Shown here piece after piece: positions 14,287 to 38,331 of a stretch of DNA of 64,000 nt. Positions within the stretch are counted from its first letter, which is position 1. Each line of letters opens with the position of its first letter. The position numbers were made by a program, and so were the translations under genes. The notes under the pieces were generated by a model that saw only the letters and a list, made by a program, of their open reading frames with translations, was not told the DNA's origin and did not search any database. This DNA comes from Smithellaceae bacterium (GTDB lineage Bacteria; Desulfobacterota; Syntrophia; Syntrophales; Smithellaceae). Where the stretch lies: the NCBI GenBank assembly GCA_035416785.1, contig DAOLNX010000001.1, forward strand, positions 9,790 through 73,789. The letters are read 5' to 3'.

Positions 14287-14706
14287 ATGATGGACATTGA
14301 ATCACTGATTCCGCATCGGGAACCCATTCGAATCATCACGGAAGTGATCGAAGTGACCGAAGACAACGGCATTGCCGCCGCTGTGGTGAATGAGCGGTGG
14401 CCCTTATATGATGGAAAGGGAGTTCAGGCGATTGTCCTTCTGGAAGCTATTGCCCAGACGGCTGCGATAGTGGAAGGTTATAAGCGCAAGAAAAGCGGCA
14501 AAGACGGCGTCAAGGGCTGGCTGGTCGGAATTAAATCTGCTGATTTTACAAAGGATTTCATTCCTTTGCATACCCGGATCACGGCTTCGGTCCACAGTCT
14601 GTATTCGTTTGAAAAATATGGCGTTACGGAAGGCGTGGTCAAAGAAGGCGATGAAATTTTGCTTTCAGCGGTGCTGCAGGTGATGCGTTTGAATGAAGAC
14701 GTATAA
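14287..14706 (+). CDS. Hotdog-fold (FabA/FabZ-like) 3-hydroxyacyl-ACP dehydratase of the polyene cluster
   Basis: 139 aa. LIPHREPIRIITEV and LLEAIAQTAA resemble FabZ-type dehydratases. This is the first gene of the cluster. Confidence 0.75.
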   Translation: MMDIESLIPHREPIRIITEVIEVTEDNGIAAAVVNERWPLYDGKGVQAIVLLEAIAQTAAIVEGYKRKKSGKDGVKGWLVGIKSADFTKDFIPLHTRITASVHSLYSFEKYGVTEGVVKEGDEILLSAVLQVMRLNEDV

Positions 14707-14728
14707 ATAATCGAGGAGATCGACGGGA

Positions 14729-15466
14729 ATGATGGAAGAGAAAAAGATAGCCCTTGTGACGGGCGCCAGCCGGGGAATCGGGCGGGCAACGGCGGTGGAA
14801 CTGGCAAAAAGCGGGTATGATGTTGTTGTCAATTACAACGCCAGCGAAACGGCGGCACAAGAGACGCTTGCTCAGGTTCAAGCGTCAGGCGCGTCGGGTG
14901 AAATATGTAAGTTCGATGTGGCCAATGCCGAAGAAGTCAAGGAAGCCATAGCCAGGATTGTTGAGGAGCACAAGAAGATTGATGTTCTGGTCAATAATGC
15001 CGGCGTCACGGCTGACGGTCTTTTTATGATGATGGGCGAAGAGGAATGGCACAAGGTTGTAGATACCATTTTGAATGGGTTTTACAATGTGACCAAGCCG
15101 GTTCTTCGCGAAATGGTCAGGAAAAAAAGAGGTGCGATCGTATCGGTTTCATCCATTTCAGCGATGATGCCCAATCGGGGCCAGGCCAATTATGCGGCGG
15201 CCAAAGCTGGCCTGAACGCTGCCATCCGCTCTGTCTCCAAAGAAGTAGCGCGTTTTGGCATCCGGATTAATGCCGTTGCGCCGGGTCCGATTGAAACGGA
15301 TATGTTGAGCGCCATGCCGCTGGATGCCAATACCATAAAAAGTATCATCCCCATGGCCAGAGTGGGAAAACCTGAAGAGGTTGCCCGGGTCATCCGATTT
15401 TTGTGTTCCGACGACGCTTCCTATATTACAGGGCAGGTGATCGGCATTAATGGAGGAATGTTTTAG
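14729..15466 (+). CDS. fabG: 3-oxoacyl-ACP reductase (SDR)
   Basis: TGASRGIGRA cofactor motif, NNAG, and the catalytic YAAAKAG. Confidence 0.9.
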   Translation: MMEEKKIALVTGASRGIGRATAVELAKSGYDVVVNYNASETAAQETLAQVQASGASGEICKFDVANAEEVKEAIARIVEEHKKIDVLVNNAGVTADGLFMMMGEEEWHKVVDTILNGFYNVTKPVLREMVRKKRGAIVSVSSISAMMPNRGQANYAAAKAGLNAAIRSVSKEVARFGIRINAVAPGPIETDMLSAMPLDANTIKSIIPMARVGKPEEVARVIRFLCSDDASYITGQVIGINGGMF

Positions 15467-15475
15467 GAATAAACC

Positions 15476-16093
15476 ATGTCATCAAGAAAATATGCCTCTG
15501 TTTTGTTCATTTTGCTGATGGTTTTGCCGTCTTGTGTCCGTGCGGATGATTTTGAACATTTACGTAAAGATGCGGCGCGGATTTCAACCATTTCAGCTGG
15601 CTTTGTGCAAAAGAAAATCATGAAAATTCTGTCAAAACCTTTGGTCTCGGAAGGTAAATTTTACTTTGCCGCACCGGATTCCATTCGCTGGGAATACCAA
15701 AAACCCGTTAAGAGCCTCGTCATTTCAAATCAAGGGAAGACTAGGCGTTATATCGTGTCCAGGGGGAAATGGATGGAAGACAGAACGGGTGGCGTTCAGG
15801 CGATGAAGATTGTGCTCAATGAGGTGGCAGGATGGATGCGCGGCAAATTTGATTCCAACCCTTCTTTTACCGCCGCCGTCAAAGAAGGAGCGAACATGCA
15901 AATTATTCTGACGCCTGTGGATAAAAGCATGGCTGGCATGATTGAAAAAATTGAGATTACGGTTTCCCGTAAGGACCTGTCTGTGAAATCCGTGCGGATC
16001 ATTGAAAACGCAAGTGCCGAAACGCGCATTGATTTCCATTCCGTAGTCGTCAACCATACCATCGATCCTTCTGTTTTTCAGGATGTTCCATGA
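15476..16093 (+). CDS. LolA-like outer-membrane lipoprotein carrier family protein
   Basis: Signal peptide followed by a LolA-like sequence (FVQKK...SEGKFYFAAPDSIRWEY). This component is typical of aryl-polyene clusters. Confidence 0.7.
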   Translation: MSSRKYASVLFILLMVLPSCVRADDFEHLRKDAARISTISAGFVQKKIMKILSKPLVSEGKFYFAAPDSIRWEYQKPVKSLVISNQGKTRRYIVSRGKWMEDRTGGVQAMKIVLNEVAGWMRGKFDSNPSFTAAVKEGANMQIILTPVDKSMAGMIEKIEITVSRKDLSVKSVRIIENASAETRIDFHSVVVNHTIDPSVFQDVP

Positions 16094-16773
16094 GGGTTTT
16101 TTCCGTTTTAATCGGATTCCTGCTGCTGGTTTCCTGCGCGGCGCTTCCGGCGATCCGGCATCAGGAGGAAGTGGGTGGAAAAAAGTTCGAGTGTCCTTCA
16201 CCATTTCTCCGGGAAAAAACGCGTTTGATCCACGCCATTGAAGTGCATGCAGCAGGTCAGCCACAAACCGTTATGATGGGAGTGACACTGGCTGATCCCG
16301 CCTTTCGGTCATTGTCCTGTGCATTAATGAGCGCAGAAGGAATGGTTCTGCTTGAAGCCTCCTTGAATTCCGACGGTCTGAGGATCAGTCGGGCGTTGCC
16401 GCCTTTTGCAGAGGGCGATTTCATCCGGAAAATGATGGAGGATATTGAATTGATATTTTTTGCGCCACAGGGAGATCCGGTTCAAAAAGGAGTTTTCTCC
16501 GGTGGTGAACCGGTTTGCCGATGGCATTCCCGACTAAGTGGATGGATTGATGCATCAGCTGAGCGTGACGGGTCTATCGTCATTCGGAACTATGCGGAAA
16601 ATGGTGGTCTCAGGCGAAGCGTCCAGTTGGATGTGGCTGCTCGTCCCTATGCAATCATTGAACTTCATGCCTTTGAACGTATTCCTTATTCGCTCGTGAT
16701 GACCCTGATCGAATCCGAGGCTGTCCATGACGATGCTCTGCAACAAAAGAAAAGCCGGGGGGGCTCTCCATGA
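16090..16773 (+). CDS. Lipoprotein of unknown function (DUF3261-like, cluster-associated)
   Basis: Lipobox LLVSC after a short signal peptide. The start overlaps the upstream stop. The family assignment is from memory of aryl-polyene clusters and was not searched. Confidence 0.55.
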   Translation: MRVFSVLIGFLLLVSCAALPAIRHQEEVGGKKFECPSPFLREKTRLIHAIEVHAAGQPQTVMMGVTLADPAFRSLSCALMSAEGMVLLEASLNSDGLRISRALPPFAEGDFIRKMMEDIELIFFAPQGDPVQKGVFSGGEPVCRWHSRLSGWIDASAERDGSIVIRNYAENGGLRRSVQLDVAARPYAIIELHAFERIPYSLVMTLIESEAVHDDALQQKKSRGGSP

Positions 16774-18245
16774 GAAAGCCTCTTGATGGAAAAAACATTA
16801 TGATCATCGGCGCGGGTGTCGGAGGCCTTTCTACGGGAATTTTGCTCAGGAATTTGGGATATCATGTCACCCTCGTGGAAAAGAATCAATTGCCGGGTGG
16901 ATTGATGCGTTCCTATATCCGTCGGGGGATCGACTGCCCAGTGGGTGTGCATTATGTTGGTGCGCTGGGACCGGACGAACCCCTCGGAAAAATGTTTCAC
17001 GTTTTGGGAATATCCGTTAAGGATTTGTTTTTTTCGATGGGCGAAGGCGGAGTGATTGATCGGTATCTCTTTGATGATTTTGTTTTTGATCTGCCGGTGG
17101 GCATTGATGCTTATGAAACTAATTTGAAAAAGACCTTTCCGGGTGAAGAGGATGCGCTGACTGCGCTGATGAAGAGCTTACGTGAAATTGCTGGAAGCAT
17201 GAAGGGATCCTCTTTTTTACTTCATCCGGCAGATCCCTTTCAAAATATGGATTATTTTCGCCCGATGGGCGAACTGCTCGATGAACTCCGGGTATCCGCC
17301 CGATTACGCGCTGTGCTGGCGGTGCCCTGCCAGCTCATTGGCGTGCCACTTTGCGATTGTCCGGTGATTTTTCATCACATGGTTACCTCTGTCTATTTAT
17401 TTTCCTCCTGGCGATTGAAAGAGGGAGGAAGCCGGATGGCGGATGCGTTTACCAAACGTTTTTCTGAAGAGGGCGGCCATCTGCTGGTAAATTCGGCGGT
17501 TCGGGAGATCTGTCTCCATGCGGGACAGGTTTCCGGAGTGATTCTGGAAACGGGAGAAAAAATTCCCGCCGACGCGGTGGTAGCGGCGATTCATCCGAAA
17601 ATTCTGTTGGGCCTTTTGCCCCAAAACGCTTTGCGCGCCAGCCTTCGTGAAAGAATTTTCACGCTTGAGGAAACGGATGGCGTGCTTGCCGTTCAGGCAA
17701 GCTTAGATGCCGATGTGCATGAGGAATTCTCTTATAATCTTTACCGTTTGCATTATGACAGCCGGGGAGAAATTGAAGACGGGGTATTTTACCAGATGCG
17801 CGAAACGGGTGATCCGTCCACCCGTCTTTTGTCAATAATTACCCGTTCTCCCTACAGGGACTGGAGTTCATGGGAACATACGGTTTCGGGAAAGCGAAGC
17901 ACGATGTATTACGAAAAAAAATTGCTGTCAGCCTATGATCTTTTAAAAAAGGCGGAAGCCATTTACGGTCCTTTGAAAAATTTTCGGATTCTGGATGTGT
18001 TCACGCCTCTGACGCTTCGCGATTATATGAATTGTCCCGAAGGATCCTGTTACGGTGTAAAACGATCTGCCCGACAACTTTTAAAAATAGCGTCCTTGAA
18101 TCATTTACCGATTGGTGGCTTGTATCTTGCCGGACAAAACGCACTGGCGCCGGGAGTGATGGGAGCCATGCTGTCATCGTTTTATGCCGTGAGGCAGATG
18201 ATTGGGGAGCAGCGATTTGCCGCGGAATTTGAACGGAAACTCTAA
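16770..18245 (+). CDS. FAD/NAD(P)-dependent oxidoreductase (phytoene-desaturase/amine-oxidase family)
   Basis: Dinucleotide fold IMIIGAGVGGLSTG...VTLVEKNQLPGG. 491 aa. Confidence 0.8.
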   Translation: MRKPLDGKNIMIIGAGVGGLSTGILLRNLGYHVTLVEKNQLPGGLMRSYIRRGIDCPVGVHYVGALGPDEPLGKMFHVLGISVKDLFFSMGEGGVIDRYLFDDFVFDLPVGIDAYETNLKKTFPGEEDALTALMKSLREIAGSMKGSSFLLHPADPFQNMDYFRPMGELLDELRVSARLRAVLAVPCQLIGVPLCDCPVIFHHMVTSVYLFSSWRLKEGGSRMADAFTKRFSEEGGHLLVNSAVREICLHAGQVSGVILETGEKIPADAVVAAIHPKILLGLLPQNALRASLRERIFTLEETDGVLAVQASLDADVHEEFSYNLYRLHYDSRGEIEDGVFYQMRETGDPSTRLLSIITRSPYRDWSSWEHTVSGKRSTMYYEKKLLSAYDLLKKAEAIYGPLKNFRILDVFTPLTLRDYMNCPEGSCYGVKRSARQLLKIASLNHLPIGGLYLAGQNALAPGVMGAMLSSFYAVRQMIGEQRFAAEFERKL

Positions 18246-18397: not shown

Positions 18398-18670
18398 ATG
18401 ACTCGTCAGGATATTGAAAAAGAAGTCCGCAGGATTTTCCTTGTGGAATTTGAAGTTGATAATCCCGAGATGGATGTCAATCTACGGGAAGCCTATGGGT
18501 TTGACAGTATTGATGCCATTGAACTTTTGCTGGAAATTGAAAAATTTCTCAATTCCGAACTGACGCAGTCGGAGAAAAAAAAGGCGATGGATATTCGGAC
18601 GATGAGGCAAATTATTGACTATATTGAAATGCTGGCCGAGAAGCGCAAGGCCTTGCCGGAGAAAGAATAG
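18398..18670 (+). CDS. Acyl carrier protein
   Basis: 90 aa with the phosphopantetheine attachment motif GFDSIDAIEL. Confidence 0.85.
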   Translation: MTRQDIEKEVRRIFLVEFEVDNPEMDVNLREAYGFDSIDAIELLLEIEKFLNSELTQSEKKKAMDIRTMRQIIDYIEMLAEKRKALPEKE

Positions 18671-18673
18671 AGG

Positions 18674-19912
18674 ATGGAACGTAGGGTTGTCATCACGGCC
18701 TGTTCGGCCATTTCACCCATCGGGCACAGCAAAAGGGAAATTGTGGAAAGCCTGTGCAAAGGAATTTCAGGCGTAAAAACTTTGCCGGAAGATGAATTAA
18801 TCGGCCGCTTTATTCATTCTCGTGTTTATGGCACTGTCAACTACCCCATTGCCTATGATTTTAAGCGCCAGCACCGTAAAACCATGGGGCCGGTGGCCTA
18901 TTATGCCTGTCAGGTGGCCAAGGAGGTTTTACAGCAGGCGCAGCTTCCAGAGAGCTTTGTGACGGGAGGCAGGTTGGGTATTGCTTTCGGGTCGATTCAC
19001 GGGTCGCCCACCGTGCAGCGTGATATTTATAAGATTATCTTCGGTGCAAAAGACAAAGCGGCTTATCAGAATATCGGTGCGGTAGATTATCTGAAATCCA
19101 TGGTGCATACGACAGCGGTCAACATTTCCAAGATGTTCGGCATTACCGGCCGCATTATTTCTTCAGGAACCGCCTGCACTACGGCCAGCCAATCCATTGG
19201 TTACGGTTACGAAGCCGTCAAGTATGGTTTGCAGGATGCCATGCTTTGCGGCGGAGCGGATGAATACGACACTATTACCGTCGCGGTTTTTGATAATTTG
19301 CTGGCGTGTTCCACCTCGTTTAATGACCGGCCTGATCAAACCCCACGCCCATTTGACCAGGCTCGTGACGGGTTGGTGGTTGCTGAAGGCGCAGGCGCTG
19401 TTCTTTTGGAAGACTATGAATCTGCCAAGAAACGAGGTGCGCCCATTTTGGCGGAAGTCATCGGTTTTGCCTGCAATTCCAATGGAGGAGACCTGATCTT
19501 GCCCAATCTGGAGGGCATTACCAAAACCCTTCAACTGGGGCTGGAAAACGCCAAATTGAATGCCTCCGATGTTGATCTGATCAGCGCCCATGCCACAGCC
19601 ACAAAAATGGGAGACATTATTGAAGCCCAGGCCACAGGTTCCGTGTTTGGTTTGCATCCACAAGTCGTGGCCCTGAAAAGTTACATGGGACACACGATGG
19701 CGGCGTGCGGAGGCATAGAAACGGTTTTATGTCTTTACATGATGCAGGAAGGGTTTATTGCGCCGACGCTCCATCTTGAAAATGTTGATGAACGCTGTTC
19801 GATGATTCGTCATGTGCAAAATCTGCTCGAACAAAAATTTACAACTGTCGCTATTCAGAACTTTGCGTTTGGCGGTGTGAATACCAGCCTGCTGATTCGA
19901 AAGTTGACCTAA
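18674..19912 (+). CDS. Beta-ketoacyl-ACP synthase (KS)
   Basis: Active-site Cys in SSGTACTTAS. His motifs SAHATAT and MGHTMAACG. Confidence 0.9.
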   Translation: MERRVVITACSAISPIGHSKREIVESLCKGISGVKTLPEDELIGRFIHSRVYGTVNYPIAYDFKRQHRKTMGPVAYYACQVAKEVLQQAQLPESFVTGGRLGIAFGSIHGSPTVQRDIYKIIFGAKDKAAYQNIGAVDYLKSMVHTTAVNISKMFGITGRIISSGTACTTASQSIGYGYEAVKYGLQDAMLCGGADEYDTITVAVFDNLLACSTSFNDRPDQTPRPFDQARDGLVVAEGAGAVLLEDYESAKKRGAPILAEVIGFACNSNGGDLILPNLEGITKTLQLGLENAKLNASDVDLISAHATATKMGDIIEAQATGSVFGLHPQVVALKSYMGHTMAACGGIETVLCLYMMQEGFIAPTLHLENVDERCSMIRHVQNLLEQKFTTVAIQNFAFGGVNTSLLIRKLT

Positions 19913-19915: not shown

Positions 19916-20707
19916 ATGCTTCCTGTTCATTTTCTCCGGCGTGCCGCGGATTTTGGTTTGACGCTGATTTTGTGGGTGTATTTTCTTTTTGGCTATCCGT
20001 TGCTTCTCCTGATTTTACTTTTTCCCCTGTCCCTTCGCTTAAAAAATGTCGCCGCTGTTATTCAGATGATGCTTCACCTCCATATGAAATATTTTTTTGC
20101 CCTGGTGTGCCTGCTTTTTCCCAAAACAAGCTTTCAAATTACCGAAAATGTTCGCTCCCTCCGCTCGTCCATCATTATCTGCAATCACCTTTCTTATTTA
20201 GACCCCATTTTGCTTGTCTCGCTTTTCCCCCGTCACACAACGATTGTGAAAAAAACTTTTTTCCGCGTCCCCATTTTTGGCTGGTTTTTAAAAAAAGCCG
20301 GTTATATTCCGTCGGCGCCCGCGGAAATGAGCGGTCCGGCCATGATTGACCATCTGGAAAGCATCAAGCGTCATCTGGCGGCGGGCGGCAATTTATTTGT
20401 TTTTCCGGAAGGAACGCGCAGCCGTCATGGTGAAATCAATCCTTTCAACAGGGGGGTATTCAGCATTGCGCGTTACTGCCGCAAGGGCTTGTCTCTGGTT
20501 TTGATCCAAAATACCGACAAGCTATTCCGTCCCGGAACTTTTTCTTTTGCGACGCAGGGAAAGCAGGCCATTACCATGGAACTGATCGGGGCGTTGGAAC
20601 CGGATTACCAGGCGAAAAATTTTTCTCTTTCCGCAGTGGTATCCCAGTCCCGGAAAATTTTTGAGCGGGAAATCGCCGCAAGAAAGCCGGGGCAAGAAAA
20701 ATCTTAA
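19916..20707 (+). CDS. Lysophospholipid (1-acyl-glycerol-3-phosphate type) acyltransferase, membrane-anchored
   Basis: HX4D motif NHLSYLD, the FPEGTRS motif, and N-terminal hydrophobic segments. Confidence 0.85.
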   Translation: MLPVHFLRRAADFGLTLILWVYFLFGYPLLLLILLFPLSLRLKNVAAVIQMMLHLHMKYFFALVCLLFPKTSFQITENVRSLRSSIIICNHLSYLDPILLVSLFPRHTTIVKKTFFRVPIFGWFLKKAGYIPSAPAEMSGPAMIDHLESIKRHLAAGGNLFVFPEGTRSRHGEINPFNRGVFSIARYCRKGLSLVLIQNTDKLFRPGTFSFATQGKQAITMELIGALEPDYQAKNFSLSAVVSQSRKIFEREIAARKPGQEKS

Positions 20708-27914: not shown

Positions 27915-28337
27915 ATGAAGGATGAAAAGAAGAGTTTCGAAGTGAAAATCAGCGTGCCTTTTTTTGATCTGGACCCGATGCAGATTGTCTGGCACGGTAA
28001 TTACCTCAACTACTTTGAGCTGGCGCGGGCGGCTCTTTTTGATCACTATGGCGTTGATCTCTACGCTTACTATGAACGGGAAAAAATCATTTTTCCCATC
28101 ATCCGTACCTCCACCAAGCATATTTTTCCGTTGAGACATCGCGATGAGATTATCTGCAAAGCCGTTTTGGCCGATGCTAACATCAAATTGGTAGTGGATT
28201 TTGAAATCCGTAAGGTGGCCGACAATAGTGTTTGCGCGCGCGGACGTACGGAGCAGGTGGCAGTCAAAACTCCGGAGATGGAAACCCTGTTCAGTCTTCC
28301 TCAGGATATTCGCAATCTCTTGGGGAATGGGGAATAG
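27915..28337 (+). CDS. 4HBT/YbgC-type hotdog thioesterase
   Basis: VPFFDLDPMQIVWHGNYLNYFELAR is typical of acyl-CoA/ACP thioesterases. The ORF is open from 27873, and ATG 27915 follows the lyase stop. Confidence 0.8.
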   Translation: MKDEKKSFEVKISVPFFDLDPMQIVWHGNYLNYFELARAALFDHYGVDLYAYYEREKIIFPIIRTSTKHIFPLRHRDEIICKAVLADANIKLVVDFEIRKVADNSVCARGRTEQVAVKTPEMETLFSLPQDIRNLLGNGE

Positions 28338-31746: not shown

Positions 31747-31773
31747 GACCGGGAAACCCGGCAAAGAGACAGC

Positions 31774-32673
31774 TTACGAAATACTGGATTTTTCTTCCTT
31801 GGCGCTCTTGGCTTCCTCGGTCGTCGTCTGACGAGTGTCAAGTTGAACGGGTTTTGATTTTTTCCAGAAACGAAGGATTTTTTGCAAAAAACCACCGGAT
31901 TTTCTGACGCTTTCTCCAGCTGTCTGGGGGGTGTTGATCTTCAGCAAATAATCGTAAAAAAGTTTTCCTTCTGTAAATTCGGGATTCAGGCTCAAGGCCT
32001 TGTCGAGGAAATTCTCCGCTTTGTAAGCATCACCTGCCTCAAAATGCGCCCGCCCGATATTGTAATAAAGATTTTCATCTTCCGGGGAGATCAGAAGCAC
32101 TTTGGAATATTTTTCCAAGGCTTCGGTGAATAAGCCGTCTGCCCGACGCTGCATACCCATGTCATTATAATGGTTTGCAACGGCTTCCCGGATATCATCG
32201 CTTTCGTTGATCAGCTCCATGGCCTGGGGTAAATTGTTTTGATCCATATATTCAATGGCTTGGATGATTTTTTGACGAATTTCCTGAAGTTGTTTTTGTT
32301 TTTCCCGGTCTATTTCCAGTCTTTGGACTTCCGCGGCTTCTTCGTCTTTTTTAATACGCTCAATAATCTCTTCTTCCTGGGCCACGATCATGCTTTTGAT
32401 AAATTCCAGGTTGGTATCCAAGTCGGAGTCTCCGAAGGATATTACTCCAAATATTTCCTGAAATTTCTTGTGTTTTGCCAGGTTGTTTAAGAAAATATCG
32501 ATGCCGCCATCGAGTTCTCTCTTTTCTTTATCTGTTTTGGGAATCGAAGGTGTTTTTTCGATCACCTCTTTAAAGGTGATCAGACTGGCGGCGATTTTGC
32601 CCTGTCGAAGCTGCATTTCGCATTGATGGAAGCGATGAAAAAGATCAGCTATCGTTGTGATTTTTGTTGCCAT
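31774..32673 (-). CDS. TPR-repeat/coiled-coil protein
   Basis: 299 aa with C-terminal TPR-like repeats (YYNIGRAHFEAGDAYKAENFLDKALSLNP). It is the last gene of the reverse-strand operon. Confidence 0.6.
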   Translation of the reverse strand: MATKITTIADLFHRFHQCEMQLRQGKIAASLITFKEVIEKTPSIPKTDKEKRELDGGIDIFLNNLAKHKKFQEIFGVISFGDSDLDTNLEFIKSMIVAQEEEIIERIKKDEEAAEVQRLEIDREKQKQLQEIRQKIIQAIEYMDQNNLPQAMELINESDDIREAVANHYNDMGMQRRADGLFTEALEKYSKVLLISPEDENLYYNIGRAHFEAGDAYKAENFLDKALSLNPEFTEGKLFYDYLLKINTPQTAGESVRKSGGFLQKILRFWKKSKPVQLDTRQTTTEEAKSAKEEKSSIS

Positions 32674-32687
32674 TGCCTCTCTCGCAT

Positions 32688-33380
32688 TCAGGGTAAATAA
32701 ATGGAAAAGATGCCGCCGCCCAGAGATCCGCCATTCATAACGGAAATAAAGCCTTTTTTATCGTTGTTGACGTGCATGCCTGCAACCATGAGTGAAAAAT
32801 AAAGACCCAACCCTGTGCTTCCGGTTTTAAAGTCGATTTCCTTCTTGAATTCCGGCTGCTTGTTTTCATTAATCAGCATGGAGGGCGGATAGCCCCTCCC
32901 GTCATCCTCAATTTGCAAAACCAGATAGCCATTTTCTGTAAAGGCTCGGATTTTTACTGTATTCTGTGCGTAGCGGAACGCATTGTTAATGACATTGTCC
33001 AAAACACCCGCTACCAGATTTCTGTCGAATGCCCAGAACAGACCTTCTTCAGACTCGGTGTAAAGGTGGATGCCTCGGGAATTCAGTAAAATTTCATGGG
33101 TTGTGGCCACTTCGTCGAGCACATCCTCAATGGCCTGATAATCGATATTCGCGGAAAGTTGTGATTTTTCCGCCTTGTAAAGCGAAAGCAAACGAATCAG
33201 GCTGTTGTTCAGACGCTGGATTTCGTATTGCATGGCATAAAATTCCTCATGTCTGTCGCAATTCTTTTCACGGCAGCTGACAATAATGTCGTCGATATTG
33301 TTCAATAAAACCCCCAGGGAGTTTTTGGTGTCGTGCAGGGTGGACGCCAGAATGTCGGCAAAATTCATTTTATTATCCAT
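32688..33380 (-). CDS. Small soluble histidine kinase (DHp + HATPase_c, no sensor domain)
   Basis: H-box LHDTKNSL, N-box DNVINNAFRYA, G1 EDDGRGYP and G2 GSTGLGLYFS. Start ATG 33380 overlaps the upstream stop by 8 nt. The ORF-track start at 33497 is probably an upstream extension. Confidence 0.75.
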   Translation of the reverse strand: MDNKMNFADILASTLHDTKNSLGVLLNNIDDIIVSCREKNCDRHEEFYAMQYEIQRLNNSLIRLLSLYKAEKSQLSANIDYQAIEDVLDEVATTHEILLNSRGIHLYTESEEGLFWAFDRNLVAGVLDNVINNAFRYAQNTVKIRAFTENGYLVLQIEDDGRGYPPSMLINENKQPEFKKEIDFKTGSTGLGLYFSLMVAGMHVNNDKKGFISVMNGGSLGGGIFSIYLP

Positions 33381-35013
33381 ATTGTTCCTCAGTGCATAGA
33401 TCCCGGTACATGACCAGCAGGGCGGCCAAGTCGGCATAATTTTCGTCGATTTTCCGGACTTTATCGAGATAGGATTTGGCGCGAGCAAGATACTCATTGT
33501 TTACGCCTGTTTCCCTCATGTAGAGCATGAGAACCTGTGCCGCATTGGCATTGATAATTTTGTTGTCCGGCAGTTGTCCGGCGGCCTTTTCAAAGTAGGC
33601 AATCGCTTCCGTCAGTCTGCCTTCCTGGGCCAGTTTGACGCCTTCATTGTTGAGGCGGATGATTTCGTCTCTTGTGGTTTTAATCAGAGCGTCTCCCTTG
33701 TCGGTCATGCCCATATCTCTGAAAATCATGCGCACGTCATCCAACGCTTTCTCATTGTCATGATTGCTGCTGACGATATTTTTGATAATCGCTTCACCTT
33801 TTTCTTCGTTACCGGTCAGGAAATAGGCTTGAGCCAAATCCAGCGCCAGATGGCTGGGAATGTCCCCTTGCATGTTTTCGGCAAGCTTCTGTGCGTCGGT
33901 TAAAGAGCGCTTGGCCTCGTCGATTTTGTTCATCTTGGTATAGACAAAGCTTTCCGCAACGCTCAAGTGCAATTGCGCATCGTTGTCGTTGGGAAACTCC
34001 TTTGTCGCGCTTCCCAGCACTTTCAAGCCTTCCTCGGCGTTGTCGCAATGAACCAAGGTTTTTGCCAGACTGGTGTAATCGGAAGAATTCTTGTAGCAGG
34101 AATTCTTGCCCTGTTCCACGGCGGCTTTAAAAGAGGTTTCCGCGGTTTTGAAGTCCTCATTTCGGTAGGCGATGTTTCCCAGATTTTTTTGCCGGAGAAG
34201 CGCTCTCGGTGAAATATTCACTGCCTTCATGAGAATTTGCTGTGCTTCCTGCGCATTGTTCAGCTTCAACAGGGTTTCCGCTAGATAATCATAGGCGGGC
34301 ATGAGTTTGTTGTTGTGGGAAATGATGTATTCAAAAATATCTTTTGCCCGTTCATAATTGCCTCTTAATAACTCTACACGCCCCCGACCCAATTGTGCCC
34401 ATCCGACATTGCCCATGCGCATAATCTTGTCATAAAAATCGGCCGCGCGCGGATAATCCGCCTTTTTCAGAAGCACTTCTCCCTTGAGAGACATAATTTC
34501 CGAAAGGTTTCCGGGATTTGTCGCCAGTAATTCGTCACATATCCGCAGTGCGCTGTCAAAATCCTTGTTCAGAATTGCTCTTTCCACATCGCGGATATTT
34601 TCCTTCTTTGCAGCAATGTTTTTGATTCTTTTTTCCAGAACTTCCTTGGCGAAAGGTTTCATGATGTAAGAATCCGGTTGATATTCCATTGCACTCATGA
34701 TCATTTCCGCCGTATTTTCCGCGGTAATCATGATGAAGATACTGGAATATCCGATGTAGCCGCGGAATTTTCCTTCTTCCAGAACCTGCTGACCTGATTT
34801 TCCCGAACCCAGATTATAATCACACAGAACAATGTCAAATCGGCGAAGCGCTAATTTCCGCACCGCTTCTTCTCCGCTCGCGGCGTCATCAATATACATG
34901 ATGCCGAAAGACCTTAACATATTCTTAATGGTCAGCCGGAAATTGAAGAAATCATCAACAACCAGGACCCTTTTCATCTTTAGATTAATCAGTGGTTTGT
35001 CATCTGTTTTCAC
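33373..35013 (-). CDS. Response regulator receiver domain fused to a long TPR array
   Basis: REC domain (MKRVLVVDD...DIVLCDYNL...IMITA...KPF) followed by about 10 TPR-like repeats. Starts at GTG 35013 or ATG 34977 are both possible. Confidence 0.85.
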   Translation of the reverse strand: MKTDDKPLINLKMKRVLVVDDFFNFRLTIKNMLRSFGIMYIDDAASGEEAVRKLALRRFDIVLCDYNLGSGKSGQQVLEEGKFRGYIGYSSIFIMITAENTAEMIMSAMEYQPDSYIMKPFAKEVLEKRIKNIAAKKENIRDVERAILNKDFDSALRICDELLATNPGNLSEIMSLKGEVLLKKADYPRAADFYDKIMRMGNVGWAQLGRGRVELLRGNYERAKDIFEYIISHNNKLMPAYDYLAETLLKLNNAQEAQQILMKAVNISPRALLRQKNLGNIAYRNEDFKTAETSFKAAVEQGKNSCYKNSSDYTSLAKTLVHCDNAEEGLKVLGSATKEFPNDNDAQLHLSVAESFVYTKMNKIDEAKRSLTDAQKLAENMQGDIPSHLALDLAQAYFLTGNEEKGEAIIKNIVSSNHDNEKALDDVRMIFRDMGMTDKGDALIKTTRDEIIRLNNEGVKLAQEGRLTEAIAYFEKAAGQLPDNKIINANAAQVLMLYMRETGVNNEYLARAKSYLDKVRKIDENYADLAALLVMYRDLCTEEQYG

Positions 35014-35253
35014 TTTACACCCAAAAAGATGTATGGATTAAAGTTGCCGTATCTGCACAACATAAAAAACTTGTTCGTCCGAAACAATTGAGCACTTCTT
35101 TAGAATATTTTTCAGAAAAACGCCAGAGCATTCAAACCCATTTTTTCTTTCTGTCTGTCAATGCGTTTTCAAGCTTTTTCTTGCACCGGCTGAGAAAATA
35201 TGTTTGTAAATCAGCGTGTAATTAATAATTTTATTGTTATTATATGGATTTAC

Positions 35254-38200
35254 ATGCCACAACAGTCGTATCACATCCGATGGTCCATTGTTTTTTTTAC
35301 CGCTGTTATCGTCGGGCTGCTTTTCTTTTGGGAAACTACCCATTTAAAAATTGAAACGGACATTCTGGAATCCATGCCGCATTCCGATCCGGTTTTAAAT
35401 GACGCTCGTCAGGTGATCACACATTTACCTGTTCAGGACCGGGTATTTCTTGATTTGGAACAGGCTGTTCCCGATCGCGACAAGTTGGCTGGGGCGGCCG
35501 GCTTTGTTACCAGGAAGTTGAAAGAAAGCGGCTTGTTTTCTAAGGTTGGAGTTGGTGATGAAGCCAGTCATTTTCCGGAGCTGATCGCTCATGTCCACAA
35601 CCATCTGCCATCCCTTTTGAGTCAATCTGATCTGGAACAAAGAATCCAGCCGCTTCTGCAACCGGAAAAAATTCGACAGGTGATGATGCAAAACCGGCAA
35701 AGTTTAGAGCAGCTTGAGGGAATTGGTCGGGCGGAGATGATGGCCAAGGATCCTCTGGGTTTTTCCGGTTTGATTCTGGAGCGGTTATCTGTTCTGCTTC
35801 CATCTGGCGGTGTTCAATATCATCAGGGGCAGCTGCTTTCCGCCGATGGCCGGCACGCGTTGATAATTGCGCGCATCAAAGGGTCGGGGACAGATTCGGT
35901 TCGCGCTGCTCAAATTGAAAAACTTCTTGCGGATTGCAGGAAAGAACTGGCACTTTATGATCATAGCCCAAATCAGTATCTTTTGTCTTCTGTTGGATCT
36001 TATCGGGCGGCATTGGACAATGAAACCATTGCCAGACGCGACACGCGTCTGGCAATCATATTGACAACGCTCGTGATCGGTCTGCTGCTCATCCTGGCGT
36101 TTCCCCGTCCGCTTATCGGCCTTTTGGCTCTTCTGCCCTCGTCTGTGGGTGCGATTGCGGCCTTGTTCGTCTGTTCCTGGCTGTTTCCATCTATGTCTTT
36201 ACTGGCAGTAGGTTTTGGTGGCGCCATTATGGCATTTACCGTTGATCTTGGACTAACGTATCTGCTGTTTTTGGACAGGTCTTACGCCACTTTAGGGAAA
36301 CAGGCGGCGCGGGAGGTCTGGTTGGCGGAATTAACGGCAGTGATGACAACGGTAGGTGCGTTTCTGACGCTTTTGATCAGCGATTTTCGCATTATGGCCC
36401 AGATTGGCGTATTTGCCGCCTTGGGCGTGACTTTTACTTTTACCTTTGTCCATTTTGTTTTTCCGAAAATTTTTCCGGCCATGCCACCGGCAAGGTCCCG
36501 CACCAACCGTTTTCTGCAAAGTGTGGTGGAAAAATTTGCGGCGCCAGCAAAGTGGAAACTGGCTGGAGCCTTCGGTTTTGCCTTGGTCATGTTGATCTTT
36601 GCCAAGCCGGTGTTCCATGTTGATCTCCAGGCGATGAATTCCGTGAGTCCTGAAACGCTTAAAGCGGAAAAAAAAATACAAGAGATCTGGGGAAATCTGT
36701 CCGGTAAATGCTATGTTCTGCTCGAAGCTCCAACCATCGAGAATCTGAGGCAAAAGGACGAACGATTGTCGGCTTTTCTGGCAGAGGCCATGAATCAGGA
36801 GAAGATTAAAAGCGCTATGCTGCCGTCGGTGCTTTTTCCATCGGATGAGGCGGCGCGCCGCAATTTTGCAGCCTGGCAAACATTCTGGACGCCCGGACGT
36901 CTTGGCGCGCTCGAAAATGCTTTGCATGATGCCGCAGGAGAAAATGGTTTTGCCGTTGATGCGTTTGATTCTTTTTGGAAAATGATGACCTCCTCCGGAC
37001 CGGTTTCCTCTCCAATACCGAAAACTTATTTTGATATGTTGGGCATTGCAAAAACGGCAGATGGATTTGCGCAAGTGACTCTGGTATCCGTTGGTTCTCA
37101 TTACAACGCCGAGGAGTTCTTTTCATTTCTTCATCAAAACAGCCTGGCCAGATTGTTTGATGCCGGTTTATTCAGCAGGCAGCTGGGGAATTTACTCAAA
37201 AGCCTGTTCATCAAAATTGCCCTGATGGTTACGATTGGCATTATTGCACTCATTTTTCTTTTCTTTTTGGATTGGCGTTTGTCTCTAGCTGTGCTTTTAC
37301 CAAGCGCCTTTGCGCTTTGCGCCACAATGGGTACGCTGCGAATGATCGGTCATCCGCTGGATATTCCCGGTATTATGCTCTGGATTGTCATTTTGGGCAT
37401 GGGAATCGACTATGCCTTGTATTATGTATGTTCTTATCAGCGACATCCCGATGAGAACTCTCCGACAATCAAGACCATTCAATTGTCCATTTTTCTGTCT
37501 GCCGCCACAACGTTCATCGGTTTTGGCGTGCTGGCCCTGGCTGAGCATTCGCTATTGCGAAGCATTGGTCTTGTGTCTCTTGCCGGTATTGGTTACTCCC
37601 TGATCGGCGTATATTTTATCCTGCCCACACTGATGCAGAAGATCTTTGCGCCCTATCCGTTTCCGGAAAGCGACGTTTTAGCCGGTTCCCAAGAGCATTT
37701 GCGGCGGACGGTGTTACGATACCGGCATTTGCCCGGATATCACAGAGTATTTGCACGTTTGAAAATTCTAATGGATCCGATGTTTCGGGAGCTGCACCAA
37801 TATGTAAAGAATCCCCGAAGGATTATCGACATTGGTTGTGGCTACGGCGTTCCTTCGACATGGCTTCTGGAAATTTATCCGCAGGCCAAAGTTTTCGGTC
37901 TGGAACCGGATGAGGAAAGAGTGCTGATCGCCAATCGCGTTATCGGCACGCGAGGATATGTGGAAACAGGTGCCGCGCCCAATCTTCCTTTCGTGGAAGG
38001 TCGGGTTGATTACGCACTGATGCTGGATATGCTACATTTTTTAACTGCGGAGGAAATGCGTCTGGTGTTCGATCGGATTTACCGGAAATTGGATGAAGGC
38101 GGCACGCTGCTGATCCGTACGACGATTCCTTCAGAGATCAAAGTGCCTTGGAAACGATGGCTTGAAGTGGTGCGGCTGAAAATGACAGGCATACGGGAGC

Positions 38201-38331
38201 ATTTCCATCAGGAAAATGAGATCACGGGCTTAATGACGGCTGCCGGATTTTCTGCTGTCGTTCATCCTTCTTGCCGCTCGGGTGTGGAAGAAAAGTGGTT
38301 TGTGGGGAAAAAGGTGCAGGTTGAAAACTGA
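35254..38331 (+). CDS. MMPL/RND-superfamily exporter fused to a C-terminal class I SAM methyltransferase
   Basis: Two blocks of multiple hydrophobic helices separated by large loops (MMPL architecture). The last ~230 aa carry motif I IIDIGCGYG and DEGGTLLIRT. The ORF is open from 35200. Confidence 0.85.
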   Translation: MPQQSYHIRWSIVFFTAVIVGLLFFWETTHLKIETDILESMPHSDPVLNDARQVITHLPVQDRVFLDLEQAVPDRDKLAGAAGFVTRKLKESGLFSKVGVGDEASHFPELIAHVHNHLPSLLSQSDLEQRIQPLLQPEKIRQVMMQNRQSLEQLEGIGRAEMMAKDPLGFSGLILERLSVLLPSGGVQYHQGQLLSADGRHALIIARIKGSGTDSVRAAQIEKLLADCRKELALYDHSPNQYLLSSVGSYRAALDNETIARRDTRLAIILTTLVIGLLLILAFPRPLIGLLALLPSSVGAIAALFVCSWLFPSMSLLAVGFGGAIMAFTVDLGLTYLLFLDRSYATLGKQAAREVWLAELTAVMTTVGAFLTLLISDFRIMAQIGVFAALGVTFTFTFVHFVFPKIFPAMPPARSRTNRFLQSVVEKFAAPAKWKLAGAFGFALVMLIFAKPVFHVDLQAMNSVSPETLKAEKKIQEIWGNLSGKCYVLLEAPTIENLRQKDERLSAFLAEAMNQEKIKSAMLPSVLFPSDEAARRNFAAWQTFWTPGRLGALENALHDAAGENGFAVDAFDSFWKMMTSSGPVSSPIPKTYFDMLGIAKTADGFAQVTLVSVGSHYNAEEFFSFLHQNSLARLFDAGLFSRQLGNLLKSLFIKIALMVTIGIIALIFLFFLDWRLSLAVLLPSAFALCATMGTLRMIGHPLDIPGIMLWIVILGMGIDYALYYVCSYQRHPDENSPTIKTIQLSIFLSAATTFIGFGVLALAEHSLLRSIGLVSLAGIGYSLIGVYFILPTLMQKIFAPYPFPESDVLAGSQEHLRRTVLRYRHLPGYHRVFARLKILMDPMFRELHQYVKNPRRIIDIGCGYGVPSTWLLEIYPQAKVFGLEPDEERVLIANRVIGTRGYVETGAAPNLPFVEGRVDYALMLDMLHFLTAEEMRLVFDRIYRKLDEGGTLLIRTTIPSEIKVPWKRWLEVVRLKMTGIREHFHQENEITGLMTAAGFSAVVHPSCRSGVEEKWFVGKKVQVEN

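Follow-up and report, generated by a model that had tools for sequence, protein, structure and literature searches.

A probable aryl-polyene/flexirubin-type outer-membrane lipid gene cluster with radical-SAM and fatty-acid-kinase-like genes in an uncultured Smithellaceae bacterium

In this study, we report the analysis of a 64,000-nucleotide stretch of DNA (the window) from the MAG of an uncultured Smithellaceae bacterium. Domains were called with Pfam and NCBIfam models, and the comparison with the Ape proteins relied on blastp best pairs and family HMMs. Every gene listed by a previous sequence-only reading between positions 14287 and 38331 was found at its given position and strand, with Pfam and NCBIfam domains that agree (Table 1). 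The gene set reaches beyond this main run and includes two outlying members, a radical-SAM enzyme and an AMP-ligase. Terminator-like hairpins, such as the one behind the exporter gene, were no more numerous across the region than in shuffled sequences. The host had been taken for a likely strict anaerobe, in agreement with its placement in the Smithellaceae, a lineage of strictly anaerobic syntrophs.

Table 1. Genes and features of the cluster (positions refer to the window).
Feature	Position	Strand	Evidence
Hotdog dehydratase, ApeP-like	14287-14706	+	Weak FabZ match, 33.6 bits
SDR ketoreductase, FabG/FlxB/ApeQ-like	14729-15466	+	adh_short_C2, 208 bits
LolA-like periplasmic carrier, ApeL/LolA2_flexi-like	15476-16093	+	Pfam LolA, 65 bits
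Lipobox lipoprotein, possible LolB-like/DUF3261 (ApeN) analogue	16090-16773	+	LLLVSC lipobox
FAD oxidoreductase, phytoene-desaturase (CrtD/CrtI)-like	16770-18245	+	Amino_oxidase, 52 bits
ACP, single copy	18398-18670	+	PP-binding; DSID serine present
KS1, active ketosynthase, ApeR type	18674-19912	+	Cys-His-His intact
LPLAT lysophospholipid acyltransferase, ApeD-like	19916-20707	+	Pfam Acyltransferase, 80.8 bits
KS2, active FabF-like ketosynthase	20915-22162	+	Cys-His-His intact; gene overlaps dead KS gene
Dead KS, chain-length-factor-like	22155-23414	+	Ala/Ala/Glu replace Cys163/His/His
Radical-SAM enzyme 1, N-terminal B12-binding-like domain	23537-24766	+	CxxxCxxC, C173/C177/C180
cNMP-binding protein	25143-25634	+	cNMP_binding, 56 bits; absent from the sequence-only list
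MIO aromatic amino-acid ammonia-lyase, TAL/PAL-type	26365-27912	+	Lyase_aromatic, 513 bits; ASG motif
4HBT-type thioesterase, ApeK-like	27915-28337	+	4HBT_2
FakA-DegV fusion, single-chain fatty-acid-kinase-like	28402-30108	+	Dak2 55, FakA-like_M 34, DegV 144 bits
GT2 glycosyltransferase	30179-30895	+	Glycos_transf_2
Regulatory block	30991-35013	mixed	J-domain protein (+); TPR, GHKL ATPase, REC-TPR (all -)
J-domain protein	30991-31746	+	HPD motif; C-terminal MshEN-type c-di-GMP-binding motif
TPR / HATPase_c / REC-TPR genes	31774-35013	-	Domain calls
MMPL/HpnN-like RND exporter (ApeM-like) fused to class I SAM methyltransferase	35200-38331	+	MMPL, Methyltransf_25
Terminator-like hairpin, 18-bp stem	38344-38383	+	Directly 3' of exporter gene
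Radical-SAM enzyme 2, BchE/HpnR-like, outlying	41120-42604	-	B12-binding 68.6, Radical_SAM 63.1 bits
ApeH-like aryl/acyl AMP-ligase, outlying	52440-53813	+	AMP-binding

The hotdog dehydratase was 24% identical to ApeP (blastp, 3e-12), and an HMM built from 45 orthologues gave 64.0 bits on E. coli ApeP vs. 40.8 on FabZ; a match to PF22817 (ApeP-like) stood in a precomputed list and was not reproduced by the local Pfam scan. The ketoreductase shared 42% identity with ApeQ and scored 295.7 on FlxB_rubin_SDR, under its cut-off of 340. The sequence-only reading had seen one ACP and one dehydratase, and no further copy of either was found across the whole window; the family HMM of the ACP scored ApeF (32.5) above ApeE (11.5). 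The best NCBIfam model of KS1 was PRK09116 (392 bits; FabF, 275), to which E. coli ApeR itself belongs (779 bits), and KS1 was 38% identical to ApeR. KS2, in turn, scored 412 bits on PRK07314 (cut-off 387) vs. 291 on PRK09185, the ApeO family. By these scores, KS2 favoured FabF models over the ApeO model. The Cys-less ketosynthase, of which KS2 is the probable partner, had correctly been described as chain-length-factor-like, with Ala, Ala and Glu at the Cys/His/His positions. It is full length, while ApeC has 240 aa, and its His-to-Glu change is the one reported for anammox Kuste3606/2805. In the Pfam and NCBIfam scans, none of the cluster proteins matched an enoyl-reductase-specific model.

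Regarding lipid assembly and export, the LPLAT protein was 30% identical to ApeD and the thioesterase 28% identical to ApeK. The GT2 resembled the N-terminal domain of ApeJ (34% identity to residues 8-230), its best NCBIfam model being the polyprenyl-phospho-GalNAc synthase PpgS (93 bits). The FakA-DegV protein joins the N-terminal and middle domains of FakA to a full DegV (FakB-like) domain; it exceeded the NCBIfam DegV cut-off (152.9 over 99.7), and in the PDB it matched the N-domain of S. aureus FakA as well as DegV structures. The LolA-like carrier reached 119.3 on NF053544 (LolA2_flexi), with a cut-off of 125. In relatives the lipoprotein gene always adjoins the LolA gene, and the link of this lipoprotein to DUF3261/ApeN was not significant (E≤1 in 6 of 14 orthologues, best 7e-4; hhalign probability against ApeN, 6%). 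The exporter-methyltransferase fusion contained a DIGCGYG motif.

Radical-SAM enzyme 1 had been labelled a B12-radical-SAM protein. The CxxxCxxC motif, NCBIfam B12-radical-SAM matches (about 1e-12) and a B12-radical-SAM-like fold, nearest to AprD4, MgmA and OxsB in a low-confidence model, agree with that label, while both Pfam domains remained sub-threshold (B12-binding, 30.0 < 32.1; Radical_SAM, 20.6 < 29.5); its use of cobalamin is therefore putative. C-methylation is the commonest activity for the B12-binding plus radical-SAM architecture; the best fold match, AprD4, is a non-methylating radical dehydratase. In 12 relatives, an orthologue of radical-SAM enzyme 2 (56-71% identity) immediately follows the LPLAT gene. 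The FAD oxidoreductase scored 78 bits on the CrtD model, far under its cut-off, and was present in 8 of the 80 relatives' loci (L016, L026, L037, L070, L073, L075, L076, and L083).

The ammonia-lyase had been proposed as a flexirubin-like starter supply. Its top NCBIfam match was hutH, under the cut-off (420 vs. 539), and it reached 310 on the FlxA model (cut-off 700). Motif 1 is F-H, invariant across 10 orthologues, and motif 2 carries Gln (HNQD), not Glu; FlxA, a characterised TAL, also has Gln in motif 2 alongside a HAL-like motif 1. For the C-terminal segment, SgTAM and RsTAL ranked above the true HALs, which came last. Motif 2 and this ranking favour a TAL/PAL-type enzyme and the proposed role, and flexirubin initiation in Chitinophaga uses a TAL/PAL-type lyase plus a ligase. 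The lyase is restricted to Syntrophales loci and missing from most loci, so that other loci may use a different aryl starter or none. The distant ligase, also assigned to the pathway beforehand, proved a true orthologue of cluster-embedded ligases: it scored 545 bits on an HMM from 24 of them, on which ApeH obtained 174 and unrelated ligases 16-90. In a full-length alignment with ApeH, its identity was 26%.

Orthologues of radical-SAM enzyme 1 (66-88% identity) occurred in 80 other species, spread over Desulfobacterota, Bacteroidota, Spirochaetota, and Myxococcota; at 74 of these loci they were accompanied by at least two other cluster genes. Carriers in culture include Desulfobacter curvatus DSM 3379, Desulforhopalus sp. 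IMCC35007, Hydrosulfovibrio ferrireducens, and Desulfotalea psychrophila. Given this recurrence at the loci compared, the gene run goes far beyond chance. The recurring order is dehydratase, ketoreductase, LolA, lipoprotein, radical-SAM 1, (ligase), (thioesterase), FakA-DegV, GT2 ... ACP, KS1, LPLAT, radical-SAM 2. Alongside radical-SAM 1, FakA-DegV was found at 36, GT2 at 33 and the exporter-methyltransferase at 16 of the 80 loci, the fusion being kept in L007, L010-12, L016, L033, L039, L041, L045, and L081. Consequently, the radical-SAM, Dak2-DegV and exporter-methyltransferase genes, counted by the sequence-only reading among additions to the standard set, are conserved in clusters of this kind, and the J-domain gene and the reverse-strand block, also in that list, are confined to this species. 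The regulatory block occurred only in same-species contigs (L001-L006) and the cNMP-binding ORF was not present in other species' clusters; in other Smithellaceae the GT2 gene is followed directly by the exporter-methyltransferase gene and the cluster is contiguous, without inserted genes. The J-domain protein, the block and the cNMP-binding ORF thus appear to be species-specific inserted regulators. The block had been described as a two-component operon; a receiver domain and a GHKL ATPase are there, but a HisKA domain was not detected. In addition, some relatives carry DarB, the dialkylresorcinol hallmark of flexirubins (L070 and L073), or, beside the same core, the TIGR04072 "lipid biosynthesis B12-binding/radical SAM protein" (392, over the cut-off of 360). 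Neither these two nor the LpxL-like acyltransferase of relatives lies in the window, where radical-SAM enzymes 2 and 1 reached 96.7 and 44.4 on TIGR04072, both under 360, and no DarA or DarB homologue was found across the 64 kb.

In attention to the observed gene complement, its family matches and its co-conservation across species, the locus probably encodes an aryl-polyene/flexirubin-type outer-membrane lipid pathway, of a subfamily whose members all came, in this analysis, from lineages with a known anaerobic lifestyle. In this pathway, the lyase would convert tyrosine (or phenylalanine) to coumarate (or cinnamate), which the ApeH-like ligase would adenylate and load on the single ACP. The KS2/dead KS pair, KS1, the ketoreductase and the dehydratase would extend it with malonyl units, and the chain would stay conjugated since no enoyl reductase is present. 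The FAD desaturase-like protein and the two radical-SAM enzymes may act on the chain or the ring through radical chemistry that needs no oxygen; for the radical-SAM enzymes, dehydration or C-C bond formation is as open as C-methylation. The thioesterase could edit or release the chain, and the FakA-DegV fusion could re-activate the free acid to acyl-phosphate for lipid assembly. LPLAT and GT2 would build the anchor, a glyco(phospho)lipid like that of APE lipids, and the exporter fusion, LolA-like protein and lipoprotein would take the product to the outer membrane, with the cNMP, c-di-GMP and receiver-domain genes as species-specific regulators.

Three other explanations must be considered. 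In a "ladderane-like" anaerobic lipid pathway (Rattray et al., 2009), the lyase would be peripheral; the product, built by FabF paralogues together with the phytoene-desaturase-like and radical-SAM enzymes, would be a hydrocarbon or fatty acyl chain, non-aromatic and polyunsaturated, branched or cyclised by radical chemistry. The TIGR04072 enzyme of relatives, the Kuste-like His-to-Glu change, the loci devoid of lyase, and the synteny and hydrocarbons described for Desulfotalea psychrophila speak for it, as do ladderane-type BGC calls reported in Desulfobacterota and Myxococcota, without assigned function. However, the cluster family has kept an aryl ligase, its Syntrophales members include a TAL/PAL-type lyase, LolA, MMPL, GT2 and LPLAT make up the APE set for export and anchoring, L070 with its DarB suggests flexirubin-type chemistry, and TIGR04072 has no member in the window; we consider this pathway unlikely.

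A true flexirubin cluster, with the aryl-polyene acid esterified to a dialkylresorcinol, is quite improbable. It would explain the Chitinophaga-like initiation genes, the near-cut-off LolA2_flexi and FlxB scores, the DarB genes of related loci and the radical-SAM gene adjoining flexirubin-like genes in Bacteroidota loci, but it conflicts with the lack of DarA/DarB in the window and with flexirubin equivalog scores that, FlxA included, are all sub-cut-off. Finally, fatty-acid-synthesis paralogues, a histidine-utilisation lyase and unrelated neighbours might lie together by chance, since KS2 and the ketoreductase pass FabF/FabG-type NCBIfam cut-offs, hutH heads the lyase matches and a formiminotransferase gene of histidine catabolism (FTCD) lies upstream (13319-14239). 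This is hardly credible: synteny across four phyla already contradicts it, FTCD adjoins the cluster in this species only, motif 2 and the C-terminal segment separate the lyase from true HALs, and neither hutU nor hutI was found among the window ORFs scanned (a part of all ORFs).

With respect to known systems, the aryl-polyene/flexirubin-type assignment of the sequence-only reading was supported by domain, Ape-counterpart and synteny comparisons; its interpretation stood for cluster type, host, lyase and ligase, and not for the list of additions. Counterparts were found for 11 of the 18 Ape proteins of E. coli CFT073, by pairwise best matches and family HMMs, the latter reaching 361 bits on ApeR, 260 on ApeQ, 176 on ApeH, 174 on ApeJ, 157 on ApeM, 108 on ApeK, 97 on ApeD, 64 on ApeP, 52 on ApeL, and 32 on ApeF (for Ape roles and APE-lipid structure, see bioRxiv 10.1101/2020.12.19.423268; PMC8253772). 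ApeI, a second ACP, ApeG, ApeA and an ApeB-type methyltransferase were not found, and the locus matches the canonical APE core incompletely, because KS2 leans towards FabF and both ApeI and the second ACP are absent. LolA, SDR and the MIO lyase bear flexirubin-type signatures, although every flexirubin-specific NCBIfam score was under its curated cut-off, those of LolA2 and FlxB being near. As early as 2009 the family had drawn attention as "ladderane-like" FASII clusters of Desulfotalea and anammox bacteria, to which DarB and TIGR04072 in relatives link it; radical-SAM, phenylacetyl-CoA ligase, glycosyltransferase, oxidoreductase and phytoene dehydrogenase genes were syntenic between D. psychrophila and Kuenenia, and polyunsaturated hydrocarbons were reported in the former (Rattray et al., 2009). 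The cluster appears to be a widespread, anaerobe-only version of the APE/flexirubin-like type, with the radical-SAM and fatty-acid-kinase genes as its conserved hallmarks.

The gene run at 14287–38331 was checked by ORF listing together with Pfam and NCBIfam scans, and both agreed with the gene content described in the sequence-only reading; the cNMP-binding ORF listed below was absent from that earlier gene list. A single ACP and a single dehydratase were detectable across the entire 64-kb window, as had been stated, with no second ACP found in the 64 kb. The reverse-strand genes embedded in the run had been called a two-component operon. REC and HATPase_c domains were present, but no HisKA domain was detected. 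The hairpin located past the exporter gene likely marks the end of the operon. The counts of promoter-like and terminator-like sequences showed no excess over shuffles, and an Rfam scan of the window gave two tRNAs and nothing else. Beyond the run, an ORF-poor stretch is followed by a gene for a protein made of hemopexin repeats, which are best known from animal proteins and uncommon in bacteria.

Features of the window, in order along the sequence, and of related loci (loci with an rSAM1 orthologue, numbered L)
Feature	Position	Strand	Remarks
Hotdog dehydratase (DH)	14287–14706		First gene of the run
SDR ketoreductase (KR)			
LolA-like protein			
Lipobox protein (lipoprotein)			227 aa; LLLVSC lipobox
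CrtD/amine-oxidase-like flavoenzyme			
ACP			
Ketosynthase KS1	18674–19912		
LPLAT acyltransferase			
Ketosynthase KS2	20915–22162		
KS-like protein (dead KS)	22155–23414		Overlaps KS2
Radical-SAM enzyme rSAM1	23537–24766		
cNMP-binding ORF	25143–25634		
MIO lyase			
4HBT thioesterase (TE)			
Dak2+FakA_M+DegV fusion (FakA-DegV)			
GT2 glycosyltransferase			
J-domain/MshEN protein	30991–31746		HPD present; C-terminal MshEN-type c-di-GMP-binding motif (NF053729, 41.5 > 38)
TPR protein		reverse	
HATPase_c protein		reverse	
REC-TPR protein		reverse	
Exporter (MMPL-MT)			1043-aa MMPL with C-terminal class I methyltransferase domain, DIGCGYG motif
Hairpin	38344–38383		Perfect 18-bp stem, 13 nt past the stop of the exporter-methyltransferase gene
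PAS-LuxR protein	39007–40278		
PilZ/YcgR-like protein	40377–41117		
Radical-SAM enzyme rSAM2	41120–42604	minus	
ORF-poor stretch	44300–46750		~2.4 kb without any ORF ≥130 aa, flanked by genes for an MFS transporter and the hemopexin-repeat protein
tRNA	45861–45934	minus	Within the ORF-poor stretch
Hemopexin-repeat protein	46782–47492	minus	236 aa; four repeats (PF00045, 170.7 bits)
ApeH-like ligase	52440–53813		
KS2 in L003 (GCA_035358835.1)	7580–8626		Called as two ORFs, 157 + 158 aa
rSAM1 orthologues in L007–L086	~10001–11227		Position in full-length loci
DarB in L070 (Desulforhopalus)	150–1307		
PEMT-like membrane methyltransferase in L070	1344–1892		
TIGR04072 protein in L070	3421–4773		
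SPASM radical-SAM enzyme in L070	19974–21011		
AMP-ligase and acyl-CoA dehydrogenase in L089	7303–9974		Between dead KS and rSAM1; AMP-ligase of 507 aa

The host had been described as a putative anaerobe, and homologues and taxonomy both point to Smithellaceae, within Syntrophales (Thermodesulfobacteriota). Among the matches listed for rSAM1, all were at least 80% identical, the best homologues were named Syntrophaceae, Smithellaceae or Smithella, and the named ones came from Smithellaceae/Syntrophaceae MAGs. Since Smithellaceae are obligately anaerobic syntrophs, the anaerobe reading holds. The locus was identical on contigs of several metagenomes and in the MAGs GCA_035358835.1 and GCA_029558685.1; in the former the KS2 gene is split, probably by a frameshift or through faulty assembly.

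A blastn search of KS1 against E. coli genomes gave no match. The reference for protein comparisons was the characterised aryl-polyene (APE) cluster of E. coli CFT073, which was taken by its coordinates and compared pairwise with the proteins of the window. Alignment with E. coli ApeR and ApeO showed that the Cys-His-His residues are kept in KS1 and KS2, whereas the third ketosynthase has Ala, Ala and Glu at these positions. KS1 had ApeR as its best Ape match (38% identity) and NF006587/PRK09116 as its best model (392 bits vs. 275 for FabF), a family to which E. coli ApeR belongs (779 bits), while E. coli ApeO is a member of PRK09185. Given that its score is under the equivalog cut-off of 470, KS1 is of ApeR type at family level and no equivalog. 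KS2 is of the active type and overlaps the full-length dead KS (419 aa), following a KS-CLF logic; the latter gave no match to the 240-aa ApeC. In L070 and similar relatives, an ApeO-like ketosynthase is fused to a CLF.

The alternative in which the KS, CLF and ACP genes are those of ordinary fatty-acid synthesis was weighed on the same scores. KS1 and the accessory set separate from it, but KS2 does so only in part, since it passed the subfamily cut-off of FabF-type models with a score of 412 and scored lower, 291, on the ApeO family PRK09185. The ACP was nearer to ApeF than to ApeE by family HMM, and the KR was 42% identical to ApeQ. DH had ApeP as its best match, and the HMM of its orthologues gave ApeP 64.0 bits, more than the 40.8 of E. 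coli FabZ. This HMM was used in place of PF22817 (ApeP-like), a model which appeared for DH in the precomputed Pfam list and gave no match in the local scan even at E ≤ 1; the model is present in the local library, where E. coli ApeP scores 141 bits. No ApeI homologue was found in the window, nor by family HMM, and no protein of the cluster matched the enoyl-reductase-specific models of Pfam and NCBIfam.

The remaining best Ape matches were LolA with ApeL, ACP with ApeF, LPLAT with ApeD (30% identity), TE with ApeK (28%), GT2 with the N-domain of ApeJ (34%, GT2 domain only) and MMPL with ApeM. HMMs built from the anaerobe orthologues agreed with these pairings; the scores lay between 361 bits (ApeR) and 32 (ApeF), with 174 for ApeJ, 157 for ApeM, 108 for ApeK, 97 for ApeD and 52 for ApeL. 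The best specific model for GT2 was a polyprenyl-phospho-GalNAc synthase. The lipoprotein adjoining LolA has a lipobox, its DUF3261 signal being below significance, and no significant link to DUF3261/ApeN was obtained by Pfam on 14 orthologues, by hhalign or by family HMM. The ApeH-like ligase, encoded 14 kb away from the main run, had ApeH as its best Ape match (26% identity, full length). An HMM built from 24 cluster-embedded ligases, this one left out, gave it 545 bits and unrelated ligases 16–90. It is therefore an orthologue of the cluster-embedded ligases and belongs to the gene set. The FakA-DegV fusion resembles FakA in its N-terminal Dak2 and middle domains and ends in a full DegV/FakB fold; its PDB matches were the N-domain of S. 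aureus FakA and DegV structures. Its scores were far under the FakA and FakB equivalog cut-offs (94 < 975 and 61 < 350, respectively).

The MIO lyase contains the ASG motif and a Gln (HNQD) at selectivity motif 2. Its motif 1 is F-H, invariant in all 10 cluster-linked orthologues, and corresponds in the alignment to S-H in SgTAM and a HAL-like structure and to F-L in parsley PAL. When PDB structures were ranked by the motif-2 segment, SgTAM came before RsTAL, followed by PALs, with true histidine ammonia-lyases last. A HAL-like motif 1 combined with the TAL/PAL Gln at motif 2 has been reported for FlxA, the flexirubin tyrosine ammonia-lyase, which has a 1000-fold preference for tyrosine (PMC3992019); on the FlxA model NF053541 the lyase scored 310 against a cut-off of 700. 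From these motifs we conclude that it is a predicted Tyr/Phe-type lyase or else possibly an aminomutase; HutH, a histidine ammonia-lyase, was rejected on the Gln at motif 2 and on the segment ranking. A link to a hut operon through the upstream FTCD gene was likewise rejected, as that gene is adjacent only in the window's species among the loci listed. The lyase itself is restricted to Syntrophales among these loci.

The first radical-SAM enzyme, rSAM1, had been read as a B12-radical-SAM protein. Its CxxxCxxC motif and NCBIfam B12-radical-SAM matches near 1e-12 are in agreement, but both Pfam domains were below cut-off. In rSAM2, which is BchE/HpnR-like by NCBIfam, both class B features were clear (68.6 and 63.1 bits). 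Both enzymes were under the cut-off of 360 of TIGR04072 (96.7 for rSAM2 and 44.4 for rSAM1) and fall in orthologous groups without a family name, other than TIGR04072. A search of 1.8 billion representatives showed that the rSAM1 orthologous group is narrow; beyond it lies a large unnamed B12-radical-SAM family at ~35% identity, and NCBIfam assigned no named family to the distant relatives. The AF2 model of rSAM1 has a confident N-domain, and its fold ranking (AprD4, then MgmA, OxsB and CysS) does not discriminate a methylase from a dehydratase because the model is poor outside residues 1–135 (pLDDT 61). AprD4 is a radical diol dehydratase that has the B12-type N-domain and is not known to use cobalamin. 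Outside the window, a 1210-aa protein (P0255) is a fusion in which an MMPL/HAE3 RND transporter carries a B12-radical-SAM domain, 34% identical to rSAM1, at its C-terminus. This fusion is a Rosetta-stone-type hint that the enzyme family of rSAM1 works with lipid exporters, and its parallel with the exporter-methyltransferase fusion of the window hints at action on a membrane lipid.

The conservation of the locus was studied with one genome per species, in a scan that yielded at least 80 loci with rSAM1 orthologues (66–88% identical), which were then searched with the window's proteins by tblastn and HMM. The hosts were Smithella/Syntrophales, Desulfobacterales and Desulfobulbales, including the cultured Desulfobacter curvatus DSM 3379 and Desulforhopalus sp. 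IMCC35007, Hydrosulfovibrio ferrireducens, Spirochaetota, Myxococcales MAGs and anaerobic Bacteroidota (Draconibacterium, Rikenellaceae and Paludibacter). At least two other cluster genes were present in 74 of the 80 loci listed, and the recurring order was DH-KR-LolA-lipoprotein-rSAM1-[ligase]-[TE]-FakA/DegV-GT2 ... ACP-KS1-LPLAT-rSAM2. In other Smithellaceae, KS2, CLF, rSAM1, MIO lyase, TE, FakA/DegV, GT2 and MMPL-MT are contiguous. The sequence-only reading had set rSAM1, FakA-DegV and the exporter-methyltransferase apart from a standard set as non-canonical additions. This division had to be abandoned, since their recurrence across the loci makes them conserved members of the family. rSAM2 is 56–71% identical to the gene that follows LPLAT in 12 loci and therefore belongs to the gene set. 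rSAM1 was conserved as much as KS1 and more than KR, DH or LolA, and this speaks for a core function and against a decorative one. Across Desulfobacterota, Bacteroidota, Spirochaetota and Myxococcota (L007–L086), its orthologues were 66–73% identical, while the neighbouring DH, LolA and lipoprotein were only 25–45% identical; either a very strong constraint or horizontal transfer could account for the high identity.

By contrast with these conserved genes, the cNMP-binding ORF and the block of J-domain, TPR, ATPase and REC-TPR genes were found only on same-species contigs among the loci listed. The locus is surrounded by c-di-GMP/cNMP regulators, and four second-messenger regulators crowd the cluster (the cNMP-binding, J-domain/MshEN, PAS-LuxR and PilZ/YcgR-like proteins). 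None of them was kept in the clusters of other species among these loci, and they may tie the lipid to the control of aggregation or biofilm formation in a syntroph. Relatives carry additions of their own. The Desulforhopalus locus L070 adds a StlD/DarB ketosynthase (534 > 450), which is a hallmark of flexirubins and stands for their dialkylresorcinol part, an LpxL-like acyltransferase, a SPASM radical-SAM enzyme and a TIGR04072 "lipid biosynthesis B12-binding/radical SAM protein" (392 > 360), with four radical-SAM genes within one lipid cluster. TIGR04072-type genes occurred in ~17 further loci (46–67% identity to the L070 protein) and not in the window. The insertion in L089, from a relative with a closed 5.2-Mb genome, was not seen in the window either.

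In the pathway that we propose, the lyase would provide coumarate or cinnamate, which the ApeH-like ligase would load onto the ACP; ApeH loads its ACP directly, with no CoA intermediate (PMC8253772). KS2 with the dead KS, KS1, KR and the ApeP-like DH would elongate the chain without enoyl reduction, and TE would edit or release it. LPLAT and GT2 may build a glycolipid anchor of the kind found in APE lipids, and the exporter-methyltransferase, LolA and the lipoprotein would carry the product to the outer membrane. The FakA-DegV fusion would phosphorylate a free acid, released by the neighbouring TE or scavenged, and so feed lipid assembly. It is no substitute for the ligase, because both genes stand side by side in relatives.

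APE clusters are regarded as the family of biosynthetic gene clusters with the widest distribution among bacteria, and the functions ascribed to their products are protection against reactive oxygen and a contribution to biofilms. An APE-like cluster in a Desulfobacterota MAG would by itself be no surprise to a specialist. Judged on the gene content of the loci listed, the variant described here appears to be a radical-SAM-bearing APE/flexirubin type restricted to anaerobes, widespread and previously glimpsed. The conservation of radical-SAM enzymes at the level of the ketosynthase in lineages that avoid oxygen raises the question of what role such lipids have without oxygen, and of which radical chemistry acts on the polyene chain; cell aggregation is a candidate role in a syntroph. 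What makes this a concrete, testable question is that radical-SAM enzymes and an acyl kinase form a conserved core, that the cluster is restricted to anaerobes and that it is homologous to candidate ladderane loci; cultured carriers exist, so that the product can be looked for. A more far-reaching proposal, which we consider rather unlikely, is that an APE/flexirubin lipid branch which needs no oxygen is common to strict anaerobes from at least four phyla, with at least two radical-SAM enzymes and a single-chain acyl kinase as core catalysts that turn polyene-ACP into methylated or radical-cyclised outer-membrane lipids of an unseen class. If it were true, the same gene set, being syntenic with candidate anammox ladderane loci, would make cultivable sulfate reducers a tractable model of the ladderane pathway.

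The classification as APE/flexirubin type is upheld by the Ape counterparts, but not every canonical APE core feature, as listed in bioRxiv 10.1101/2020.12.19.423268, is present; the cluster would work like an APE cluster while missing some of these features. With the apeA-R clusters of E. coli CFT073 and Xenorhabdus doucetiae it has in common counterparts of ApeR (KS1), ApeD, ApeF, ApeH, ApeJ (GT2 domain), ApeK, ApeL, ApeM, ApeP and ApeQ, a KS2 that may correspond to ApeO/R, with a dead KS in the putative role of ApeC, the lack of an enoyl reductase, and the logic of lipid anchoring with LolA/RND export to the outer membrane. ApeA, ApeG, ApeI and an ApeB-type methyltransferase have no counterpart in the window, which has one ACP and one DH where apeA-R has two of each. 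In addition, its dead KS is longer than ApeC, KS2 is more FabF-like than ApeO-like, and its methyltransferase is of a different family and fused to the exporter. The starter would come from an MIO lyase and not from chorismate-derived 4-hydroxybenzoate, two radical-SAM enzymes, the FakA-DegV fusion and the CrtD-like flavoenzyme are added, and two of the genes, those for the ligase and rSAM2, are separate from the main run.

With respect to the flexirubin clusters of Chitinophaga pinensis and Flavobacterium johnsoniae (flxA-flxY, darA/darB), the cluster shares a predicted initiation by a TAL-type MIO lyase and an aryl ligase, the lyase being comparable to FlxA in the His at the second motif-1 position and the Gln at motif 2. 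It also shares the type-II-FAS-like KS/KR/DH/TE set and acyltransferase, LolA, glycosyltransferase and exporter genes. LolA2_flexi and FlxB were the best or near-best specific models in the window, with all flexirubin equivalog cut-offs missed (FlxB 295.7 < 340; LolA2_flexi 119.3 < 125, which is close). It differs in its strictly anaerobic host and in the presence of radical-SAM enzymes and FakA-DegV. The darA/darB genes are not in the window, where tblastn found no DarB homologue, and DarB is present in the relatives L070, L073 and L069. Compared with the FakA/FakB pair of Firmicutes, the fusion has the same Dak2, middle and DegV/FakB domains, but in one polypeptide instead of two, with DegV in place of the FakA C-domain; its host is a Gram-negative anaerobe, in which it is part of a polyketide-like lipid cluster. 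In the searched literature, no paper was found on flexirubin together with radical SAM, on Smithella with aryl polyenes, or linking the window's cluster family with flexirubin or APE chemistry.

Ladderanes are, to our knowledge, known only from anammox bacteria. FASII clusters with SAM-radical enzymes, phytoene-dehydrogenase-like genes, a phenylacetyl-CoA ligase and a glycosyltransferase were described in Desulfotalea psychrophila, Geobacter, Pelobacter and Kuenenia stuttgartiensis, with FabF paralogues of dead active sites including His333 → Glu; the function proposed for these clusters was to make ladderanes or, anaerobically, PUFAs (Rattray et al., 2009; PMC2649909). Ladderane-type cluster calls in Desulfobacterota and Myxococcota MAGs have been reported without an assigned function (PMC9902471). 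The window's cluster is thus a member of a family that earlier work had already glimpsed. This link rests on NCBIfam membership shared by relatives and on published gene lists. The Desulfobulbales relatives hold a bona fide TIGR04072 protein, which the window does not. Shared with the "ladderane-like" clusters are the dead-site FabF paralogue, whose His → Glu change is the same in the window's dead KS, the radical-SAM enzymes, the phytoene-desaturase-like and phenylacetyl-CoA-ligase-like enzymes and the glycosyltransferase, and the non-anammox clusters of this kind can be re-read as APE/flexirubin-type clusters for outer-membrane lipids.
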